Positions 1-8,831 of a stretch of 8,831 nucleotides of DNA are shown here, in pieces. Source of the stretch: a virus (Duplodnaviria > Heunggongvirae > Uroviricota > Caudoviricetes); IMG/VR virus record IMGVR_UViG_3300029878_000286, positions 1 through 8,831 of that record; one strand, 5' to 3'. A program made the position numbers and the translations under genes. The stretch's first letter is position 1. Every line of letters begins with the position of its first letter. Below the pieces are notes generated by a model. The model was not told where the DNA came from. It was given only the letters and a program-made list of their open reading frames with translations, and did no database searches.

Positions 1-333
1 CTAACGGATAGAACCATCAGGATATAAGTACACGCCACCCTCTAGATACATTGGCTCACCATCTTCAACTGCAATATCTTGATAAAGTTCAGCCAGTTCA
101 TTAGATTCATTTTTTACAAGATTATATGTATCAACATCATACCCAAGGATTTTTAACTCATCATCTGAGGTTGCTCCTTGTTTTTGCTTAAGCGCAACAA
201 TATCAAAAATCCACTTTTTGCCATCTTTAACGTAGTACGCCCCAGAATCATAACCACGATCGTCAAGTACTTTTTCAAATCCCATCGATAATGCTTTTTT
301 GACAGTATGTTTTTTTACGGTAATGATAGCCAT
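1..333 (-). CDS. Hypothetical acidic protein, 110 aa, no family recognised; possibly accessory cargo
   Basis: Complete minus-strand ORF: ATG at 333-331, stop TAG at 3-1 (reverse complement of cta at the window start). Weak AG-rich patch upstream (aagagat). The locus is visibly AT-rich compared with the core genes to the right. The translation is rich in D/E and has no hydrophobic segment. I do not recognise the family. Confidence 0.5.
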   Translation of the reverse strand: MAIITVKKHTVKKALSMGFEKVLDDRGYDSGAYYVKDGKKWIFDIVALKQKQGATSDDELKILGYDVDTYNLVKNESNELAELYQDIAVEDGEPMYLEGGVYLYPDGSIR

Positions 334-441
334 GTAATCTCTTAATATATTGAATAAAAGTGAACTTATATACTGATAAAAGTTTACTCTGACGCAATTA
401 ACTCAGCTAGTGGAGAATGATGTTATTTTTGCACCAGTAGA

Positions 442-1458
442 TCACACTTCTAGCGTTGCGAGGGGGTTGAATCTCAGAGCCGTCTCAAGATGATCGGGTG
501 CTAAATGGGCATAGCGCATAGTCATTTTTATATCGTGATGTCCGAGGATTTTTTGCAAAGCAAGGATATTTCCACCCGACATCATGAAGTGCGCCGCAAA
601 CGTATGGCGCAGAACGTGTGTCAGTTGACCGCGAGGGAGCACGATAGACGTTTTTTCCATCACGGATAAAAATTGAAAATAGCAGTCTGTAAAGAAATTG
701 AACCCATCAAGCGCCATGATCTCTTCGTAAAGCTCTTTACTGATAGGGATGCTTCTGTTTTTCTTCCCCTTCGTTCTTACAAAGGTAATTCGGTATTTGG
801 TCACTTGCGAGCGGGTAAGATTTATTGCTTCTCGCCAGCGTGCGCCTGTGCTTAGGCATATCTTGACTACCAGTGCCAGAATTGGGTCCTGACGTTTGCA
901 ATCAGCCAGCAGTTCAACAATCTGCTCATGGGTAAGCCATGCCATCTCTTTTTCTGCGATGGTGAATTTTCGCATGTTCTCCAGTGGGTTCGGATACGAC
1001 CATTCGCCCAGGCGGGATAGTTCGCTAAAAACACTACTTAGATAGCTTTGCTCCAGGTTAATGGTGACCGGGCTTGCTCCTTTCTTCCATTTCTCGCTGA
1101 AGTAGATCTCACCTGTCAGGCGTTTATCTCGATAGTGGGCAAACATTTTAGAGGTTAGATCAGTTGCAAGGGGATTGCCCAGAGCGTCAACCATCAACAG
1201 CAGTTTGTCATAGACATGCTGCCCAGCTGTCAGAGATTTACCATGTAGTTTGAACCATAGCTCAATCACGTCTTTCAATGTCCGACGATCCACTGATTCG
1301 CCCAGCCAGGGCTTTGCTTCGGTTTCTTCCATCGTGTGACGCTCAAAAGCCAGAGCTTCGCCTTTGGTGGCGAATTGTTTACGCACACGACGTCCACTAC
1401 GTCCGGCGGGGTAACATTCGCAAAGCCATTTTCCTGTGGTGAGTTTTCGTACTGCCAT
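442..1458 (-). CDS. int: Tyrosine recombinase / phage integrase of the P2-186 family (338 aa)
   Basis: In-frame ATG at 1458-1456 preceded by ggaggg (minus strand); stop TGA at 444-442. The ORF track starts 26 codons upstream at a non-ATG codon. The N-terminus (MAVRKLTTGKW...RKQFATKGEALAFERH) resembles the arm-binding domain of P2/186 Int as I recall it. The C-terminal part carries a tyrosine-recombinase catalytic signature (R...HxLRHT...Y, here ...LTHVLRHTFAAHF...MRYAHL). Confidence 0.9.
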   Translation of the reverse strand: MAVRKLTTGKWLCECYPAGRSGRRVRKQFATKGEALAFERHTMEETEAKPWLGESVDRRTLKDVIELWFKLHGKSLTAGQHVYDKLLLMVDALGNPLATDLTSKMFAHYRDKRLTGEIYFSEKWKKGASPVTINLEQSYLSSVFSELSRLGEWSYPNPLENMRKFTIAEKEMAWLTHEQIVELLADCKRQDPILALVVKICLSTGARWREAINLTRSQVTKYRITFVRTKGKKNRSIPISKELYEEIMALDGFNFFTDCYFQFLSVMEKTSIVLPRGQLTHVLRHTFAAHFMMSGGNILALQKILGHHDIKMTMRYAHLAPDHLETALRFNPLATLEV

Positions 1459-1644
1459 AAAAAATGCCCTCCAGTAGAGAGCATTTTTACTGTATGTATA
1501 ACCAGTGTCAATGTATGAAATCCTGCGACCATACATCTCACTGAAGCCATAATGAAGTTAGCTATTTTTTGCTATGTGAGTATGTGACTTTTGCGGTTAG
1601 CCTGCGGCTCATTGTTATATTAGGCGCAGATATAAAAGCAAAAT

Positions 1645-1836
1645 TTATCGCGAGTTTTTAGTACAGATTTTTTTTGATTTACTAATAGTTCCATCATTGC
1701 AAACGAACTTTCCATCGGAGGTACAGTGAGAGACACCTCCCTTTTTCCCAGAACAAGGATAATTTTTAGCATAGGTAGTTAGTGGGTTTAATAACAAAGA
1801 GCATGATAAAACCACAAAAAATACCTTACCAAGCAT
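1645..1836 (-). CDS. Small secreted cysteine-rich cationic protein (63-aa precursor, predicted Sec signal peptide, about 40-aa mature peptide); candidate moron / lysogenic-conversion gene
   Basis: ATG at 1836-1834 with a strong SD (gggagga) about 5 nt upstream on the minus strand, 15 nt downstream of the cI stop. The N-terminus [23 protein letters not shown] has a positive n-region, a hydrophobic core and a TYA cleavage-type motif. The predicted mature part [40 protein letters not shown] has 4 Cys and 8 Lys. The locus is AT-rich. Confidence 0.6.
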
Positions 1837-1851
1837 AGTTTCCTCCCGGTA

Positions 1852-2421
1852 TTACCTAACGTACTTAATTGTTAAACTTATAATTTTCCCAATTATTTCA
1901 ACATCTTCTATCTTGCACTCGAAGGCTCTGTTTCCACCCTCGACGAAGATTCTTCCACCGGGTAAACGAGTAATGTCACGGATCGTTATTTCGCCATCAA
2001 TACTTATTACCCATTTACCATCACGTATATCATCAAATTCCTTATCACAAATAAATTCAGAATTATTATCTGTGATTACAAAAAGATTCTTGAATGCCGA
2101 CGGTAGAAATTCTCTATCGAAAATATAAAAACCGTCTTCACACAAGGCCCCATCAGATAATACATATTTAGCAACTTCCATAGTATTTGTATTACCTGAA
2201 GTTTGCTTTGAACCATGCCCGGTTGTGAGCCAATTAAGCGAGGTGCCTGTTTCAAGGGCGCACTGGATTACCCATTCTGCTGGGAATGAGTCACGCATGT
2301 AGCGTGTGGCGAGTGTACTTTTAGAGATTCCTAAATGATCGCACAACGCCTGTCGAGTCTTGAATCCATAAGCTTCTACCATGCGCTCTATAGCGCCTCG
2401 TCCGCCTTTCTCCAAATTCAT
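1852..2421 (-). CDS. cI: Phage immunity repressor, 186 CI-like (N-terminal HTH, about 189 aa)
   Basis: The ORF track starts at GTG 2427-2425. The in-frame ATG at 2421-2419 has GGAG 5 nt upstream (minus strand) and is preferred. The length is close to coliphage 186 CI (about 192 aa, from memory). The N-terminal segment ...QALCDHLGISKSTLATRYMR... looks like an HTH. I see no LexA-type GDSM / Ser-Lys autocleavage motif. The gene is divergent from the apl/cII operon and co-directional with int, as in 186. Confidence 0.75.
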   Translation of the reverse strand: MNLEKGGRGAIERMVEAYGFKTRQALCDHLGISKSTLATRYMRDSFPAEWVIQCALETGTSLNWLTTGHGSKQTSGNTNTMEVAKYVLSDGALCEDGFYIFDREFLPSAFKNLFVITDNNSEFICDKEFDDIRDGKWVISIDGEITIRDITRLPGGRIFVEGGNRAFECKIEDVEIIGKIISLTIKYVR

Positions 2422-2445
2422 GGTCACTCCAAGTGAACTTTTATC

Positions 2446-2474
2446 TTGACGATTTCACTGTGCGATCGTATGTT
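2446..2474 (+). promoter_or_regulatory. Candidate rightward lytic promoter (pR-like): -35 TTGACG (2446-2451), 17-bp spacer, -10 TATGTT (2469-2474)
   Basis: Sigma70-like hexamers with canonical spacing, located 70-100 bp upstream of the apl-like start and close to the cI start. This matches the face-to-face pR/pL arrangement known for 186 and P2. GTGAAC / GTTCAC half-sites flank it at 2433-2438, 2453-2457 and 2482-2487. Confidence 0.35.
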
Positions 2475-2546
2475 TATGGTGTTCACAAAATACAAACGAT
2501 CCGTATTCGTCCTGATTAATCATCATTAAACGAGGAATGTTGCATC

Positions 2547-2768
2547 ATGAGACCTAACATTTCAATCACTCTTACCACCCCTCATGTGACTATTGAACGC
2601 TATAGCGAGCTGACAGGGCTATCCATCGATACCATCAATGACATGTTGGCTGATGGACGCCTTATCCGTCACCGTCTGCGCAAAGATAAAAAACGCGAAA
2701 AAGTGATGATCAACATAGCAGCAATGACCGTTGATGCGCTTTCAGAATGCAATCTAAACCTTAATTAG
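2547..2768 (+). CDS. apl: Apl/Cox-like excisionase-transcriptional regulator (73 aa, HTH)
   Basis: ATG at 2547 with gagga about 10 nt upstream; stop TAG at 2766-2768. It is the first gene of the rightward operon, directly opposite cI, which is the position of apl in 186 and cox in P2. The segment [25 protein letters not shown] is HTH-like. The assignment is by position and size. Confidence 0.6.
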
Positions 2769-2800
2769 TTCGATTCTGAAATACATCAGAGGCATTGACC

Positions 2801-3310
2801 ATGTTTGATTACCAAGTTTCCAAACATCCACATTTTGATGAAGCCTGTCGTGCATTCGCATTGCGCCACAACCTGGTGCAACTGGCAGAACGTGCTGGCA
2901 TGAATGTGCAGATTCTGCGGAACAAGTTGAACCCAGCGCAACCTCATTTATTAACCGCACCAGAAATCTGGCTGCTTACCGATCTGACTGAAGATTCAAC
3001 GCTGGTAGATGGTTTTCTGGCTCAGATTCACTGCCTGCCATGCGTACCGATTAATGAGGTGGCAAAAGAGAAACTGCCACATTACGTCATGAGTGCAACC
3101 GCAGAGATCGGGCGTGTTGCTGCAGGTGCGGTATCTGGCGATGTAAAAACCAGTGCAGGTCGTCGTGATGCTATCAGCAGCATTAACTCTGTAACACGAC
3201 TGATGGCGTTGGCTGCTGTTTCATTGCAGGCCCGTTTACAGGCTAACCCTGCGATGGCGAGTGCAGTTGATACCGTGACTGGCCTCGGTGCTTCATTCGG
3301 TTTGCTGTGA
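2801..3310 (+). CDS. cII: CII-like lysogeny-establishment activator (169 aa), 186 CII family
   Basis: In-frame ATG at 2801 (the ORF track starts at TTG 2795) with agagg upstream. The translation [24 protein letters not shown]...[15 protein letters not shown]...[21 protein letters not shown] matches my recollection of coliphage 186 CII almost along its whole length, and the length is the same (169 aa). Confidence 0.8.
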
Positions 3311-3317
3311 GGTGCTT

Positions 3318-3518
3318 ATGCTGACGAAAGAACCATCATTTGCATCGCTGCTGGTAAAGCAAAGCCCGGCGATGCACTACGGTCACGGCTGGATCATGGG
3401 TGAGGATGGAAAACGCTGGCATCCGTGCCGTTCACAAGATGAATTGCTGGCAGAACTATCTACGAAAAAACGGGGGAACAAATGGCTATTGAAGGCGCTG
3501 CGGCGACTGTTCCATTAA
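3318..3518 (+). CDS. fil: Fil-like small early protein (66 aa); 186 Fil is a cell-division inhibitor
   Basis: ATG at 3318 preceded by gaggtg, 7 nt after the cII stop. The ORF track extends upstream to a GTG inside cII. Position after cII and the MLTKEPSFASLLVKQSP...HPCRSQ sequence fit 186 fil as I recall it. Confidence 0.55.
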   Translation: MLTKEPSFASLLVKQSPAMHYGHGWIMGEDGKRWHPCRSQDELLAELSTKKRGNKWLLKALRRLFH

Positions 3519-3823
3519 GACCCGGTGAACGCCTGAATGGACTTAATCATATTGCGGAGTTAAGGGCGAAAGTTTTTGGTTTGAATATTGAGTCAGAGCT
3601 TGAGCGGTTTATTAAAGATATGCGTGATCCACGGGATATCAATAATGAACAAAATAAACGGGCACTGGCTGCCATATTCTTTATGGCAAAAATTCCAGCT
3701 GAACGTCATAGCATCAGCATTAATGAGCTGACCACTGACGAAAAGCGGGAGTTGATTAAAGCAATGAATCATTTTCGTGCAGTGGTGAGCTTATTTCCCA
3801 GACGGCTAACCATGCCGAATTAA
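3482..3823 (+). CDS. Hypothetical phage early protein (113 aa)
   Basis: ATG at 3482 with ggggga 4 nt upstream; stop TAA at 3821-3823. It overlaps the end of the fil-like ORF by 37 nt in another frame and is co-directional within the early operon. No family recognised. Confidence 0.5.
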   Translation: MAIEGAAATVPLRPGERLNGLNHIAELRAKVFGLNIESELERFIKDMRDPRDINNEQNKRALAAIFFMAKIPAERHSISINELTTDEKRELIKAMNHFRAVVSLFPRRLTMPN

Positions 3824-3890
3824 CCAACTAATGAAATTAATGGCGTAAACCCGCCGGGCATCCCTTTATCTAAATTCAGGAGAATTGCTT

Positions 3891-4124
3891 ATGCGTAATA
3901 TTGAAACCCTCACGACCAAAACCGGACCGGATGATGCAGGTCTTAATCTTTTACTGACAGAGGCTCGTCTGGAAGAACGCCGGGCAAGGGCTGAAGCAAT
4001 GGCTGCTCGCCTCGATAGCCTGGCGTGTCATATCACCTCCCGCCAGCTAAACCACGTCGAAGCGGCAGAACTGCTGCGTGTGACTGCTGAAGCAATCCAG
4101 AACGAAGCGCAGGAGATCCACTGA
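3891..4124 (+). CDS. Hypothetical phage early protein (77 aa), predicted helical
   Basis: ATG at 3891 preceded by aggaga (the ORF track starts at TTG 3885). Its stop TGA (4122-4124) overlaps the ATG of the next gene (TGATG), suggesting translational coupling. Confidence 0.55.
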   Translation: MRNIETLTTKTGPDDAGLNLLLTEARLEERRARAEAMAARLDSLACHITSRQLNHVEAAELLRVTAEAIQNEAQEIH

Positions 4125-4351
4125 TGGCTGATGCAATGGATCTCGTACAGCAGCGCGTTGAAGAAGAACGCCAACGCCATATCCGTGCTGCCCGTGCCAA
4201 AACGCCGGGCGTGTCCCGCGTGCTTTGCGTTGAGTGTGAAGCGCCAATTCCGCCAGCACGCCGCCGTGCCATTCCTGGAGTGCAGCTTTGCATTACCTGC
4301 CAGGAAATCGCAGAGCTGAAAGGCAAACATTACAACGGAGGTGCTGTATGA
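4124..4351 (+). CDS. TraR/DksA-family C4 zinc-finger protein (75 aa)
   Basis: ATG at 4124 with aggaga 7 nt upstream. The translation has CxxC-(17)-CxxC (CVEC...CITC), the spacing typical of the DksA/TraR zinc finger. Small TraR-like ORFs occur in the early regions of P2-like and lambdoid phages. Confidence 0.7.
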   Translation: MADAMDLVQQRVEEERQRHIRAARAKTPGVSRVLCVECEAPIPPARRRAIPGVQLCITCQEIAELKGKHYNGGAV

Positions 4352-5220
4352 GCACCATCCTGAAATGGGCGGGTAATAAAACCGCCATTATGTCCGAACT
4401 GAAAAAATACCTTCCTGCTGGCCCGCGACTGGTTGAACCTTTCGCGGGTTCTTGTGCTGTGATGATGGCGACGGATTACCCCAGCTATCTGGTTGCGGAT
4501 ATTAATCCTGATTTAATCAACCTCTATAAAAAGATTGCCGCTGATTGCGAAGCGTTTATATCTCGTGCCAAAGTTTTATTTGAGGAAGCAAACAGTGAGC
4601 TGGCTTATTACAACATAAGACAGGAGTTTAATTACTCAACTGAAATTACTGATTTCATGAAGGCGATATATTTCCTGTATCTCAATCGTCACGGTTACCG
4701 TGGTTTATGTCGCTATAACAAGAGCGGGTATTTCAACATTCCCTACGGTAATTATAAAAATCCGTATTTCCCTGAAAAAGAAATTCGCGCATTTGCAGAG
4801 AAAGCCCAGCGGGCAACGTTTATCTGCGCGAGCTTTGATGAAACGCTGGCGATGCTGCAGGTGGGGGATGTGGTGTATTGCGATCCGCCGTATGACGGTA
4901 CGTTTTCCGGCTACCTGGTGGGTACGGATGAAAACGTGCTGGTACTTAATCGCACTTATGCCAACCGGAGCAACGCCGAACGAGCGGCGAAAATGCAGTG
5001 GGAACGCCTGCAACGCGGCGTTGCGTCATTCTCGCTACAACTGGCAGAAGGGCGGGCAGATCTCTACACGGAAATGCCAGTGAAAGTCAGTGGCTTTAAA
5101 CAGCCGATAGATGATGCGGAATGGACCATTACGACTCTGACGCATACCGTCAGCCCGGATAACGGTTTTACGACCAGTCTGGAGCTTGAAGTGAGGATTG
5201 ATGATTTCGAAATGGAATGA
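4348..5220 (+). pseudogene. Chimeric in-frame ORF (290 aa): N-terminal about 182 aa of a Dam-family N6-adenine DNA methyltransferase fused to the C-terminal about 100 aa of P2-type tail protein D; likely a deletion scar rather than a functional gene
   Basis: ATG at 4348 overlaps the upstream stop (ATGA), with ggagg 6 nt upstream. Residues 1-182 carry Dam-like motifs: ILKWAGNK at the N-terminus, PFAGSCAV (motif I-like) and DPPY at 179-182 (nt 4882-4893). The roughly 95 residues that follow DPPY in Dam enzymes are missing. From about residue 186 (nt about 4903) the sequence ([19 protein letters not shown]...[53 protein letters not shown]...GFTTSLELEVRIDD) matches my recollection of the C-terminus of P2 gpD. 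The next gene is ogr, as it is after D in P2. Confidence 0.65.
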
Positions 5221-5310
5221 TTCTTCGCAATGGAGAACTTTTAAGTTTGCAAAATGGAATAATGCGGTATCATTATTGTGAATTTAGCAAAAATGGGGAG
5301 AACTCGAAAA

Positions 5311-5529
5311 ATGATGATTTGCCCACTGTGTGGAAGTGCCGCCCATACTCGCAGCAGTTTTCAGGTATCTTCATTGACCAAAGAGCGTTACAACCAGTGC
5401 CAGAACATTAACTGCAGCCATACTTTTGTTACCCATGAAACTTTTGTTCGTTCGATTGCAACGCCAAAAGAGTCAAATCCGGTTCAGCCGCATCCAATTA
5501 AATCAGGACAGGTGGCGCTCTCTCTTTGA
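5311..5529 (+). CDS. ogr: Ogr/B-family late-gene transcriptional activator (72 aa, zinc finger)
   Basis: ATG at 5311 with gggaga about 9 nt upstream (the ORF track starts at GTG 5278). The translation MMICPLCGSAAHTRSS...KERYNQCQNINCSHTF...PHP..SGQ has the CxxC-(22)-CxxxxC finger and a KERY.QCQN.NC core as I recall for P2 Ogr; the length is identical (72 aa). It sits after the D fragment as in P2. Confidence 0.85.
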   Translation: MMICPLCGSAAHTRSSFQVSSLTKERYNQCQNINCSHTFVTHETFVRSIATPKESNPVQPHPIKSGQVALSL

Positions 5530-5609
5530 CGCCGCCGCCATTTTGTCGCCATCGTTAAAAAACAGTTTTTCTAACATCATGATTTTAAACAGCTTAAATT
5601 TCAGGCAAC

Positions 5610-5652
5610 AAAAAACCCATCAACCTTGAACCGAAATGGCGGGGTTGATGGG
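5610..5652 (-). terminator. Rho-independent terminator-like hairpin downstream of ybjL
   Basis: A 10-bp perfect inverted repeat, cccatcaacc (5616-5625) and ggttgatggg (5643-5652), with a 17-nt loop. On the minus strand it is followed by a 6-nt T run (plus-strand A run 5610-5615). It lies about 110 bp past the ybjL stop. Confidence 0.5.
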
Positions 5653-5764
5653 CTCCACAAAATGGGGACATCAAAGAAAAGCAGTGGCACTAATTAAGAC
5701 TGATGCCCTGCGGAAAAGTTCTGCGGTTGTGCAAAAAAATTTCATTTTCAGGGCAACTTCAGTT

Positions 5765-7450
5765 TTATCCTAATCCTGGCCATACCATGACGATGATTGT
5801 CCCTGCCAGCGTCAGCAGGACGTTGGCGATTGCGTAGGTGCCCGCATAGCCCAGCGCAGGGATGTTACTGCGAGCTGTATCACTGATGATCTCCATTGCC
5901 GGCGCGCAGGTGCGTGCGCCCATCATTGCGCCGAACAACAGTGCGCGGTTCATTCGCAATACATAAGCACCGAACAAGAAACAGATAACCACGGGCACAA
6001 GACTGACAATTAATCCGGCAATCAACATCTGACCGCCAATCGCGCCCAGGCCGTTATTAATACCGCTACCGGCGCTCAGACCAACGCCTGCCATAAACAC
6101 CATCAAGCCGAACTCTTTCACCATGCTTAATGCACCTTGCGGAATGTAACCGAAGGTCGGGTGGTTAGCACGCATAAAGCCCAGCATAATTCCGGCGAAT
6201 AACAACCCGGCAGCGTTCCCCATGCCGAAACTGAATGTGCTGAACTGGAAGGTGATCATCCCGATCATCAGCCCAATAACAAAGAAGGCGCAAAATGCCA
6301 GCAGGTCAGTGACCTGGCTGTGAATCGAGATAAAGCCGATGCGATCGGCGATGGTTTTTACGCGACGGGCATCACCGCTGACTTGTAAAACGTCACCTTT
6401 GTTAAGCACGACGTTGTCATCTATCGGCATCTCAATCTGGCTACGAATGACGCGGTTAAGGAAGCAACCGTGATCGGTCAACTTCAGTTGTGCGAGACGT
6501 TTACCTACAGCGTTATGGTTTTTAACGACCACTTCTTCAGTGACGATACGCATGTCGAGAAGGTCACGATCGAAAACTTCTTTACCGTTACGGAAGCTGG
6601 GATCGAGTCGGGCATGGGCGTCGGGATAGCCTACCAACGCTATTTCATCGCCCATTTGTAGCACGGCATCACCGTCTGGATTTGCCAGAATCCCGTTACG
6701 TCGAATACGTTCAATGTAGCAGCCGGTTTGTCGATAAATACCCAGTTCACGCAGATTTTTGCCGTCGGTCCAGGCCACCAGCTCCGGGCCGACGCGATAG
6801 GCGCGGATCACCGGTAAATAAACCTTACGGTTGGCATCAGTGTCCAGGCCACGTTCGCGGGCGATTTGCTGGGCGCTGGTCTGTAAGTCCTGATGCTGCA
6901 ATTTCGGCAAGTAACGCGCACCAACAATCAAACTCACCAGACCGATTAAATAGGTTAAGGCATACCCGAGGCTCAGATTATCCAGTGCCAGTGAGAGCTG
7001 CCTGCTTTCCATGCCGGAATGACGCAGTGTATCGCCAGCACCGACCAGAACCGGTGTCGACGTCATAGAGCCTGCTAACATACCGGCCGTCAGGCCAATA
7101 TCCCAGCCAAACAGCTTACCTAACCCTAAGGCGATCACCAGCGCACTGCCAACCATCACCAGTGCTAACATTAGGTAATTTTTCCCATCGCGAAAAAAAA
7201 TGGAAAAAAAGTTCGGTCCGGCTTCAACCCCAACACAGAAAATAAACAGCATAAAGCCAAGATTAAGCGCATCGGTGTTAATGCTGAAATGATGTTGGCC
7301 TAATAACAGCGATACGACTAAAACGCCAATGGAATTACCCAGTTGGATCGAACCAAGTCGTAACTTTCCGAGACATAGCCCAAGCGCGAGGACCACAAAT
7401 AATAACAGAATGTAATTCCCATTTAACAATTCGGCGACGTTTATATTCAC
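5765..7450 (-). CDS. ybjL: Putative transport protein YbjL (561 aa; AAE-family transporter with two TrkA-C-like domains)
   Basis: The translation [33 protein letters not shown]... matches E. coli YbjL as I recall it, with multiple hydrophobic segments and a central soluble region. The start is GTG at 7450-7448. Confidence 0.93.
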
Positions 7451-7719
7451 GGAGGCTAACTTCTTGTTTACTAGTAAGCTGTTGAAAGAAATGGTAATTT
7501 ACGATAATGTTTTTTACCAGAATTCAGGGCGCAGATTCATTCAGCGCACCTAAACGATAGTAAAGTAACAATATATTTTACTAGTGTAATCACATTAGGT
7601 ATCAACGGCTATATGAATTGCGTTGGCCTATATTAGCATGGAATGCGAAGCGGCTTTATCTTACTGAACGCCACACTGGCGAAAAATGTGTTCGATAGAC
7701 GCAGTGTCAGGAGGAACGA

Positions 7720-8097
7720 GTGAAACATAAACAACGTTGGGCGGGGGCAATCTGCTGTTTTGTCCTCTTCATTGTGGTGTGCCTTTTTCTGGCGACGCAC
7801 ATGAAAGGCGCTTTTCGGGCTGCCGGGCATCCTGAAATCGGCTTGCTGTTTTTCATTCTTCCTGGAGCAGTTGCCAGTTTCTTTTCACAGCGTAGAGAAG
7901 TCCTGAAACCTCTGTTTGGCGCAATGCTGGCGGCACCCTGTTCAATGCTTATTATGCGGCTGTTTTTTTCACCGACCCGCTCATTCTGGCAAGAGCTGGC
8001 ATGGTTACTAAGCGCGGTGTTCTGGTGTGCGCTGGGGGCACTGTGTTTCTTATTTATCAGTAGTTTGTTTAAACCACAGCACAGAAAAAATCAGTAA
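7720..8097 (+). CDS. ybjM: Inner-membrane protein YbjM (125 aa)
   Basis: GTG start at 7720 with aggagga 5 nt upstream; stop TAA at 8095-8097. The hydrophobic translation MKHKQRWAGAICCFVLFIVVCLFLATH... matches E. coli YbjM as I recall it. Confidence 0.88.
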   Translation: MKHKQRWAGAICCFVLFIVVCLFLATHMKGAFRAAGHPEIGLLFFILPGAVASFFSQRREVLKPLFGAMLAAPCSMLIMRLFFSPTRSFWQELAWLLSAVFWCALGALCFLFISSLFKPQHRKNQ

Positions 8098-8117
8098 AGC
8101 CCTCAACGTGAGGGCTT
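8097..8117. terminator. Hairpin between convergent ybjM and grxA, possible bidirectional terminator
   Basis: aagccctca / tgagggctt form a 9-bp stem with a 3-nt loop (acg) immediately after the ybjM stop and 10 nt before the grxA stop. The flanking U-runs are weak on both strands. Confidence 0.4.
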
Positions 8118-8126
8118 GTCAGACGA

Positions 8127-8384
8127 TCAGGCGTCCAGATTTTCTTTCACCCATGCAGCAAAATCGGTATAGCCGCCGATATGTTGCTGATCGACAAAAA
8201 TCTGCGGCACGGTTTCTACGGGTTTACCTGCCTTTTGTTGTAGATCTTCTTTAGTGATCCCTTCCGCACGAATATCAACATACTGATACTGAAAATCATC
8301 GCGTTCATTGCTCAATTTCTCAGCCAGATCTTTTGCACGCACACAGTAAGGGCAACCCGGACGACCAAAAATAACGGTTTGCAT
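8127..8384 (-). CDS. grxA: Glutaredoxin 1 (85 aa)
   Basis: ATG at 8384-8382 with gaggag 7 nt upstream on the minus strand (the ORF track starts 5 codons further upstream, inside that SD). The translation MQTVIFGRPGCPYCVRAKDLAEKL... has the CPYC glutaredoxin active site and matches E. coli GrxA. Confidence 0.95.
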   Translation of the reverse strand: MQTVIFGRPGCPYCVRAKDLAEKLSNERDDFQYQYVDIRAEGITKEDLQQKAGKPVETVPQIFVDQQHIGGYTDFAAWVKENLDA

Positions 8385-8543
8385 TATTTCTCTCCTCATA
8401 GATTTATGCCTGTAATGATCACGCTAAAATGTATTCGCTGAAAGTAGGTTTAACCTGTTGCATTAATTGCTAAAAGCTATAACTGTTAAACACAATACAG
8501 TGAAAAGTTTTAGACTGAAGGCTCACTTTGCAGAGGGAAGCGT
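8385..8543. promoter_or_regulatory. Divergent promoter region for grxA (leftward) and ybjC-nfsA (rightward); individual sites not mapped
   Basis: A 159-bp AT-rich intergenic region between divergent start codons. In E. coli grxA belongs to the OxyR regulon and nfsA (co-transcribed with ybjC) to the SoxS/MarA/Rob regulon. I could not place the hexamers or activator boxes confidently by eye. Confidence 0.4.
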
Positions 8544-8831
8544 ATGCGCGCGATCGGTAAATTGCCTAAAGGCGTGTTGATACTGGAATTTATCGGAATG
8601 ATGCTACTGGCGGTGGCGCTGCTGTCGGTAAGCGACTCCCTGTCGCTGCCTGAGCCATTTTCTCGGCCAGAAGTGCAGATTCTGATGATTTTTCTCGGTG
8701 TTTTGCTCATGCTTCCCGCTGCGGTGGTGGTTATTCTTCAGGTGGCAAAACGTCTTGCCCCACAGCTGATGAACCGTCCACCGCAATATTCACGTTCAGA
8801 AAGAGAAAAAGATAATGACGCCAACCATTGA
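8544..8831 (+). CDS. ybjC: Inner-membrane protein YbjC (95 aa)
   Basis: ATG at 8544 with gaggga upstream; stop TGA at 8829-8831. The translation MRAIGKLPKGVLILEFIGMMLLAVALL... matches E. coli YbjC. Its last 17 nt overlap the nfsA start. Confidence 0.9.
   Translation: MRAIGKLPKGVLILEFIGMMLLAVALLSVSDSLSLPEPFSRPEVQILMIFLGVLLMLPAAVVVILQVAKRLAPQLMNRPPQYSRSEREKDNDANH
8815..8831 (+). CDS. nfsA: 5' end (first 5 codons) of oxygen-insensitive NADPH nitroreductase NfsA; truncated by the window edge
   Basis: ATG at 8815 followed by acg cca acc att ga, giving MTPTI(E), the N-terminus of E. coli NfsA as I recall it. It overlaps the ybjC 3' end out of frame, consistent with the ybjC-nfsA operon. Confidence 0.6.

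Follow-up and report, generated by a model that had tools for sequence, protein, structure and literature searches.

An in-frame Dam–gpD fusion in a P2-like prophage remnant of Escherichia coli as a highly probable by-product of prophage decay through a large internal deletion

The stretch of DNA analysed here (the window; 8,831 nucleotides) is a piece of the Escherichia coli chromosome, of which the left two-thirds hold the early arm of a P2-like prophage and the right third the host genes ybjL, ybjM, grxA and ybjC. Apart from the open reading frame (ORF) at 4348-5220, which is treated separately below, the locus features the following elements.

1..333, minus strand: hypothetical ORF of 110 aa between attL (outside the window) and int; hypothetical also in E. 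coli REL606 and absent from the empty rcdA-ybjL site of K-12 DH10B
442..1458, minus strand: P2-type tyrosine integrase (Pfam Int_N and Phage_integrase; annotated as phage integrase in REL606)
1645..1836, minus strand: small YdcA-like ORF of 63 aa between int and cI (PF27300 YdcA on the matching locus L004)
1852..2421, minus strand: 186-type CI immunity repressor (Pfam Phage_CI_repr and Phage_CI_C)
2547..2768, plus strand: Cox/Apl-like excisionase-repressor, first gene of the early lytic operon (phrog_575, E 6e-31)
2801..3310, plus strand: CII-like regulator (Pfam Phage_CP76, E 3.4e-42)
3318..3518, plus strand: Fil-like gene (REL606 annotation; PF10893 on L004)
3482..3823, plus strand: DUF5347 gene (Pfam)
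3891..4124, plus strand: DUF2732 gene (Pfam; coordinates by REL606 annotation)
4124..4351, plus strand: TraR/DksA-type zinc-finger gene (Pfam zf-dskA_traR, E 4.4e-11)
5311..5529, plus strand: intact ogr, zinc-finger activator of the late genes (Pfam Ogr_Delta, E 6.8e-22; REL606 coordinates)
5595..5620, plus strand: attR core TAAATTTCAGGCAACAAAAAACCCAT (26-bp overlap between the empty K-12 site and both prophage ends)
5765..7450, minus strand: ybjL, chromosomal flank (annotation of matching loci)

Promoter-like sites lie upstream of the Cox/Apl-like gene (2446-2474) and upstream of ogr (5246-5273), and the PHROG profile search returned no match for the 110-aa ORF at 1..333. Comparison with the empty rcdA-ybjL site of K-12 DH10B defined the attachment core, which had escaped a search for direct repeats of at least 14 nt; its attL copy precedes the window start by 150-175 bp. 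On a GenBank contig differing from the window by 1 nt (locus L004), the element measures 5,795 bp (~5.8 kb) from attL to attR and is located between rcdA and ybjL. In line with P2-like phages (Peduoviridae), it is flanked by att sites and carries a P2-type integrase, a switch composed of CI, Cox/Apl and CII, and ogr, whereas gene A with its origin as well as the capsid, packaging, lysis and tail gene sets are missing. Retained are int, cI, cox, cII, fil, traR and ogr, and no genes for replication, packaging, lysis or the virion were found within these 5,795 bp, compared with a genome of 33,540 bp in Klebsiella phage 4LV2017 (Peduoviridae), the closest sequenced phage. The element is a P2-like prophage remnant and not a prophage.

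Between the TraR/DksA-type gene and ogr, an earlier note on this DNA had described an in-frame fusion of the 5' part of a phage dam gene with the 3' end of tail gene D. This description was borne out by comparison with both parents, and the ORF (4348-5220, plus strand; 290 codons plus stop) is composed as follows.

4348..4913, plus strand: dam', 188 codons plus TA of codon 189, D12-class adenine methyltransferase (100% identical to dam of the REL606 prophage as far as nt 4913, unrelated beyond)
4912..5220, plus strand: 'D, last 102 codons plus stop of the tail/baseplate-hub gene D (corresponds to D nt 793-1101; nucleotide sequence 96-99% identical to the D genes of 4LV2017 and the REL606 prophage)
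4912..4913, plus strand: deletion joint, 2-bp microhomology TA common to dam (GGCTA|TCAC) and D (GATTA|CCTGG), from three-way alignment of the window with both parents

At the protein level, the first part is 100% identical to the 285-aa Dam of the REL606 prophage up to residue 189 and diverges thereafter, while the second part is identical at 97 of 102 positions to gpD residues 265-366 of 4LV2017, stays in the frame of D and terminates with the D stop codon shortly before ogr. Hence, the ORF is confirmed as a chimera of Dam codons 1-188 and the last 102 codons of D. The methyltransferase motifs named in the earlier note were all located, namely ILKWAGNK from codon 4, the FxGxx-type motif (PFAGS, residues 31-35) and DPPY at the stated codons 179-182. 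The overlap expected for the proposed coupling of the start to the TraR-like gene is likewise present, the ATG sharing an ATGA at 4348-4351 with the TGA of that gene, with a GGAGG at 4337-4341, 6 nt 5' of the start.

Profile searches gave a consistent picture of the two halves. Residues 7-185 matched Pfam MethyltransfD12 (PF02086; profile positions 1-190/253, E 2.7e-59) and residues 1-189 the PHROG family of DNA methyltransferases (phrog_56, E 6e-82), and in comparison with solved structures, residues 4-183 align with residues 7-185 of the 278 of EcoDam (E 5e-55). Altogether, family matches to Dam (Pfam, NCBIfam, PHROG, PDB) end at residues 183-189 of the chimera. For the second half, Pfam Phage_GPD was found on residues 203-269 (profile 237-302/305, E 2.6e-5) with 24 bits, i.e., under its cut-off of 30.1, and the C-terminal part aligns to residues 246-319/329 of the pyocin R2 hub protein (6u5h_C, E 3.4e-6). 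Clearer than Pfam, the PHROG matches, with the tail protein family phrog_12925 on residues 187-290 (profile positions 123-225/227, E 2.9e-56), are decisive for the identity of this half, and together with the identity to gpD of 4LV2017 they agree with the earlier claim that the C-terminal 100 or so residues resemble gpD.

Judged by its domains, the ORF counts neither as a Dam enzyme nor as gpD, because completeness fails for both. From the Dam class it has the region of the AdoMet-binding motif I (FxGxG), the target-recognition domain and the motif IV DPPY, but the complete catalytic domain is missing, as the conserved C-terminal third after DPPY (helix-strand-helix-strand-strand) is gone; of the hub protein, which is about 366 aa long when complete, it has residues 265-366 only. 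The earlier statement that everything after DPPY is lost holds for this C-terminal third but goes slightly too far, since six or seven residues (DGTFSG and the shared Y) are still retained.

In AdoMet-dependent methyltransferases, the segment following motif IV completes the seven-stranded catalytic sheet with its final strands and helices. The fold has been described with DPPY placed on a loop adjoining strand beta-4 (PMC5173035). While the intact phage Dam aligns with EcoDam over residues 7-270, the alignment of the chimera stops at EcoDam residue 185, and the about 97 Dam residues that are lost have their counterpart in EcoDam 191-270, within the catalytic domain that was crystallised. All of the 22 columns after residue 189 that are invariant among 25 Dam homologues are absent from the chimera. 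Moreover, a variant of the chimera with one substitution (P0002) carries P132L at a position which is invariant in 25/25 homologues and aligns with EcoDam P134, as would be expected for sequence under relaxed constraint. Given the early stop of the EcoDam alignment, the loss of invariant columns, the known fold and the P132L variant, the chimera is very probably inactive as a DNA methylase. Modelling with AlphaFold2 yielded mean pLDDT values of 46 for the intact Dam and 50 for the chimera, and these low-confidence models were left unused; the loss of the fold is therefore judged by aligning the sequence to solved structures and by what is generally known of the methyltransferase fold. The ORF is part of the rightward early lytic operon, downstream of the Cox-like gene, which by analogy with the 186/P2 paradigm is presumably repressed by CI, so that little of it would be transcribed in a lysogen. 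Upon derepression, some chimeric polypeptide could be made, because a good Shine-Dalgarno sequence and the ATGA coupling are kept.

The joint itself could be placed exactly. Positions 1-4913 of the window correspond to REL606 880691-885603 (99.9% identity, 5 mismatches), from the left prophage end into dam, and positions 4912-8831 to REL606 903988-907907 (99.0% identity), from inside the truncated D through ogr to ybjL-ybjC, so that both homologies overlap in the window by the 2 nt TA at 4912-4913. In the three-way alignment, dam reads TTTTCCGGCTA|TCACACT and D reads CAGGGCGATTA|CCTGGTGGG, while the window reads TTTTCCGGCTACCTGGTGGG. The shared TA sits inside a Tyr codon in both parents and the joint falls in codon 189 (Tyr189), about 10-15 nt further right than the earlier estimate (nt 4894-4906, about codon 186), which had correctly recognized the fusion but not its exact position. 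Alignment with both parental sequences revealed no filler DNA, extra bases or IS element at the joint; flanks from distant loci, few shared bases and the lack of a mobile element or filler are all features of a microhomology deletion scar. The earlier note had also asked for microhomology relative to an intact relative, and these 2 bp (TA) are what was found.

In the intact 4LV2017 genome, dam (5984-6841) and A (6838-9252) are separated from D (31940-33040) by all the late genes. The joint maps to 6549 | 32732 on this genome, i.e., dam nt 566 | D nt 793, and the 26,184 bp missing in between take in the dam 3' end, gene A for replication, cargo genes and every late gene as far as D codon 264. 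Relative to the REL606 prophage, which is already defective, the loss amounts to 18,386 bp. Both comparisons agree with the earlier claim on what has been lost, i.e., the 3' part of dam, the replication gene and the late region up to the last 100 or so codons of D, which may have been removed by one single deletion.

We propose that a P2-like temperate phage with 186-type CI/Cox/CII immunity genes integrated between rcdA and ybjL of E. coli and that the prophage then lost about 26 kb of internal DNA by illegitimate recombination on the 2-bp TA microhomology, with the left break after dam nt 566 and the right break before D nt 793. The joint reads through in frame because both breaks fall in a Tyr codon at the same phase, and the predicted product consists of Dam residues 1-188, a tyrosine and gpD 266-366 up to D's stop codon. 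It is highly probable that prophage decay through such a large internal deletion gave rise to the 290-codon ORF as a by-product; both parental sequences, the exact joint and the content of the missing DNA are directly visible in the alignments, and the identical chimera recurs in many independent assemblies.

Alternatively, the joint may have arisen in several steps, through at least two successive deletions or recombinations, e.g., inside a defective prophage of the E. coli B type or inside a longer dam'-'D chimera, which we consider possible but rather unlikely. At the same chromosomal site, REL606 already features an invertase'-'D joint at D nt 699 and a scaffold'-lysin' deletion, and the window's D break (nt 793) falls inside the D fragment that REL606 has kept. 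Furthermore, two chimeras from other lineages, P0004 (Dam 1-252 plus D 145-366) and P0006 (Dam 1-189 plus D 279-366), have one dam allele and one set of cargo genes in common, and P0006 could be a nested deletion of P0004. The two arms of the window also differ in their identity to REL606, being 99.9% on the left and about 98% in the right prophage arm (15 mismatches over 4912-5595). On the other hand, the window needs no more than one event, as its two-parent junction is clean and without filler DNA, and an intermediate with the right-arm allele of this strain was not recovered. Because the right arm has diverged by ~2% compared with 0.1% in the left arm, the immediate ancestor was a different mosaic and not the REL606 prophage itself, and its history may include recombination or more than one deletion. 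Prophage decay is in any case common at the rcdA-ybjL site. D-ogr adjoins ybjL in 927 of 5426 complete genomes (about 17%), many with internal deletions or IS1, and examples include IS1-mediated loss, A'-'D and terminase/'D joints and the multiply deleted B prophage.

Deletion ends in related elements were found to recur at certain positions. D nt 345 forms the right end in P0003 (left end at dam nt 734), in EC-07 (left end at A nt 1212), in FG31-1, where the prophage occupies the ssrA site and the left deletion end lies in the tail-fibre region, and probably in P0005. This reuse represents at least three events with differing left partners, D alleles and chromosomal sites, the D allele of P0003 being unlike the others. 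Six further deletion ends fall in D nt 699-837, a stretch largely encoding a purine-rich Lys/Arg/Glu linker. On the dam side, ends cluster within 40 nt (558-595) shortly behind the DPPY codons, including the window (566), P0006 (567), P0018 (558), P0014 (595) and the module swap in P0010 (577); the independent deletions among them end 1-30 nt from the window's dam position, which hints at a break site in dam that is not random. In addition, D345, D699, D793 and the dam-side break of E. coli AF44 (nt 130) are each situated exactly 5' of TACC, a tetramer occurring only five times in D.

In break-point simulations, which were simple and relied on uneven ascertainment so that their P values are suggestive only, three of eleven events within 3 nt gave P of about 0.003, the dam cluster P of about 0.02, and the TACC coincidence P of 1e-4, or about 0.03 once it is considered that the tetramer was picked post hoc from 256. 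Such non-random break points could stem from a phage or host activity that breaks and joins DNA at preferred sites, but we regard this as doubtful. If true, the reduction of P2-like prophages to a stub of int, immunity and ogr would be semi-programmed rather than random erosion.

Several candidate causes of the breaks were considered and rejected. The nick site of the P2 A protein (GCGCCTCG|GAGTCC, NC_001895:29892) and its counterpart in A of 4LV2017 (about nt 2023) resemble no break site, arguing against a pseudo-origin, and the nick site is also off for EC-07, whose break in A is at nt 1212. For invertases of the Cin/Pin type, the true crossover site is TTCTCCCAAACCAACGTTTATGAAAA, and a half-site-like TTTCGGGAAACC is present just left of D nt 345, but the position of the crossover does not fit. 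Hairpin-induced slippage was likewise discarded, as DNA folding in 80-nt windows at the dam break, D nt 345 and D nt 793 gave z-scores of about 0.

That the chimera has been kept for a function, e.g., binding of GATC or AdoMet without catalysis, a dominant-negative partnership with the host Dam, or supply of a free gpD C-terminal domain, appears very improbable. Frame, start codon, Shine-Dalgarno sequence and traR coupling are all intact, the protein still contains the helical domain for DNA recognition (residues about 54-114) together with the beta-hairpin region, and at least four other in-frame Dam'-'D chimeras (P0003, P0004, P0005 and P0006) exist in other E. coli lineages. However, these four were found by a search of protein databases, which sees in-frame products only. 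Among joints found by DNA search regardless of frame, with the phase computed from annotated coordinates, all five same-strand joints are out of frame (AF44 dam'-'D, EC-07 A'-'D, REL606 invertase'-'D, PSS-10 J'-'D and KL53 O'-'D). As these joints give no support to selection for in-frame fusions, that explanation was rejected, and the kept frame in the window's chimera looks like chance, a one-in-three accident. A short dam'-'D remnant of any kind was found in 1 of 5426 complete genomes, namely in AF44, where the joint is independent and out of frame. The lineage of the chimera is, furthermore, clonal, consisting of one protein cluster and one variant, and it is an invariant DNA-contact proline that this variant alters; its position in an operon expected to be under CI repression also argues against a function.

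A protein search covering 5.8 billion proteins returned 7087 homologues. Among these, full-coverage matches were limited to the same protein (52 contigs), the one-substitution variant P0002 (5 contigs) and deletion chimeras such as one of 275 aa with a different joint, whereas with ordinary Dam proteins (282-295 aa) the coverage of the query was only 65%; a single known family matching over the full length, which would have spoken against the earlier note, was thus not among them. The identical 290-aa protein occurs on 52 contigs in 98 index blocks (NCBI, ENA, JGI and Logan), including one contig of 4.63 Mb, and always in the same context. In 5426 complete RefSeq E. coli genomes, the exact joint was found in none, and the carrier lineage is rare in E. 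coli. An exact-match scan for the joint in a collection with one genome per species gave no match either, but is uninformative for a joint at the strain level.

A natural Dam variant with an alternative C-terminal domain, acquired by domain swap, is refuted by the structure of the locus and can practically be dismissed. Module swaps at this position of Dam do exist, as in P0010, where Dam 1-192 is followed by an unrelated region of 229 aa and then an intact A gene. In the window, however, the C-terminal part is the D 3' end nucleotide for nucleotide, with D's stop codon followed by ogr and attR, and A and every late gene are missing. An assembly artefact, in which contigs collapsed between two parts of an intact prophage, has an equally negligible chance, because the identical protein with its joint recurs across several archives in the same context, and a shared TA of 2 bp is too short to cause such a collapse.

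The chimera is an ordinary scar of prophage decay that matters in practice mainly because its functional annotation misleads. NCBI already lists this exact protein under the name "Dam family site-specific DNA-(adenine-N6)-methyltransferase", because it passes the cut-off of TIGR00571 (245 bits compared with 114.85) by matching profile positions 1-195/267 only. Orphan methylases would be over-called in surveys of methylomes or restriction-modification systems that count entries of this kind. What is understood of Dam and of P2 biology is not altered by any of these findings. The remnant documents the decay of a common E. coli prophage to a stub still equipped with an immunity repressor and Ogr, and the reuse of break points, if real, would be a modest, yet testable clue to the origin of prophage deletions.

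In comparison with EcoDam and other D12-class (alpha-group) N6-adenine methyltransferases, the chimera shares the AdoMet-binding FxGxG region, the DNA-recognition domain and DPPY, but lacks the whole segment by which the intact phage enzyme matches EcoDam 191-270. E. coli AF44 (NZ_OZ547155.1) resembles the window in that dam and D are joined at the same site, which makes it the sole such short remnant among the 5426 complete genomes, but its joint (dam nt 129 | D about nt 770) arose independently and is annotated by PGAP as two pseudogenes. The cryptic prophage PR-X of K-12 (yegZ pseudogene and ogrK) is a remnant of the P2 family as well, with a C-terminal D fragment and an intact ogr beside the attachment site; unlike the element described here, it spans 629 bp only, resides at another chromosomal site, has lost the whole int-immunity arm and carries its D fragment unfused. 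The ogr genes of K-12 and B are reportedly functional. The closest counterpart is the defective P2-like prophage of E. coli B (REL606/BL21), which occupies the same rcdA-ybjL attachment site, has a left arm that is 99.9% identical over 4.9 kb (int, cI, cox, cII, fil, traR and the dam 5' part) and likewise ends with a truncated 'D followed by ogr. In contrast, the B prophage keeps full dam, A, the retron St85 and many late genes, and its D, cut at nt 699, is fused out of frame with what is left of an invertase gene. Relative to this prophage, the window's element is missing a further 18.4 kb, with dam joined straight to D nt 793.

Besides the chimera of the window, at least four in-frame Dam'-'D chimeras (275, 496, 472 and 456 aa) occur independently in other E. 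coli lineages. DNA was recovered for P0006 (locus L010), P0003 (L011) and P0004 (L012), and P0005 is known from the protein alone; all three chimeras with DNA lie at the rcdA-ybjL site, in prophage variants differing in their cargo genes. At this site, 927 of the 5426 complete genomes of E. coli have a P2-like D-ogr end. Several of the examined prophages, residing either there or at ssrA, are remnants with differing internal losses (L007 (NZ_CP019213.3), L008, L009, L019, and L020). The losses seen in the examined remnants include IS1-mediated, A'-'D, terminase/'D, J'-'D and O'-'D events, and the terminase/'D joint at D nt 986–989 appears to mark a widespread lineage. Along with the deleted DNA, the remnant in the window has lost defence cargo, i.e., the retron St85 (effector and reverse transcriptase), which intact relatives carry in the interval from gene A to the portal gene:

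L001 11103–12814 / L003 54–941, retron St85
L005 (intact reference Klebsiella phage 4LV2017) 10905–12888, retron St85

With respect to the break points, at least three deletions that arose independently terminate on their right side at one and the same nucleotide, D nt 345 (L005 32284):

L011 3735, break at D nt 345
L008 (EC-07, A'-'D) 3001–3003, break at D nt 345
L018 1507, break at D nt 345

The left partners of these deletions differ (dam nt 734, A nt 1212 and the tail-fibre region), and one of them belongs to a prophage at the ssrA site. The motif TACC directly follows, on the 3' side, D345, D699 (the break in REL606) and D793 (the joint in the window), exactly in all three cases; no mechanism behind the shared D nt 345 end and the TACC-adjacent breaks was found. 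The dam gene was itself broken by five independent rearrangements inside 40 nt directly past the DPPY codons (window 4904–4941, dam nt 558–595; also L013, L014, and L016). Among these, the P0010 rearrangement is a module swap and not a deletion, joining Dam 1–192 to an unrelated region of 229 aa, with an intact gene A downstream.

In public records, the chimera (window 4348–5220) is named a Dam family methyltransferase because its score of 245 bits against the NCBI TIGR00571 'dam' model clears the cut-off of 114.85 bits, despite matching only profile positions 1–195 of 267. The sub-lineage P0002 (five contigs) carries the substitution P132L in its chimera (codon 132, window 4741–4743); Pro132 is invariant across 25 Dam homologues and aligns to Pro134 of EcoDam.

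Three further features accompany the chimera in the window:

1–333, minus strand, 110-aa ORF within the element, in the attL–int interval
1645–1836, minus strand, 63-aa YdcA-family ORF with hydrophobic N-terminus, between int and cI
5246–5273, sigma-70-like site TTTGCA-16-TATCAT, downstream of the D stop codon and upstream of ogr

The 110-aa ORF, which had no match in Pfam or PHROG, is conserved in REL606 and missing at the empty K-12 site, and the YdcA-family ORF may represent a lysogenic-conversion (moron) gene. Between the chimeric ORF and ogr no terminator-like site was found, so that early-operon transcripts may now run on into ogr. Compared with the REL606 prophage, i.e., the defective P2-like prophage of E. 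coli B at the same site, the right arm ('D-ogr-attR, window 4912–5595) diverges by about 2%, whereas the left arm (334–4913) differs by 0.1%, so that the ancestor was a mosaic other than the B prophage.
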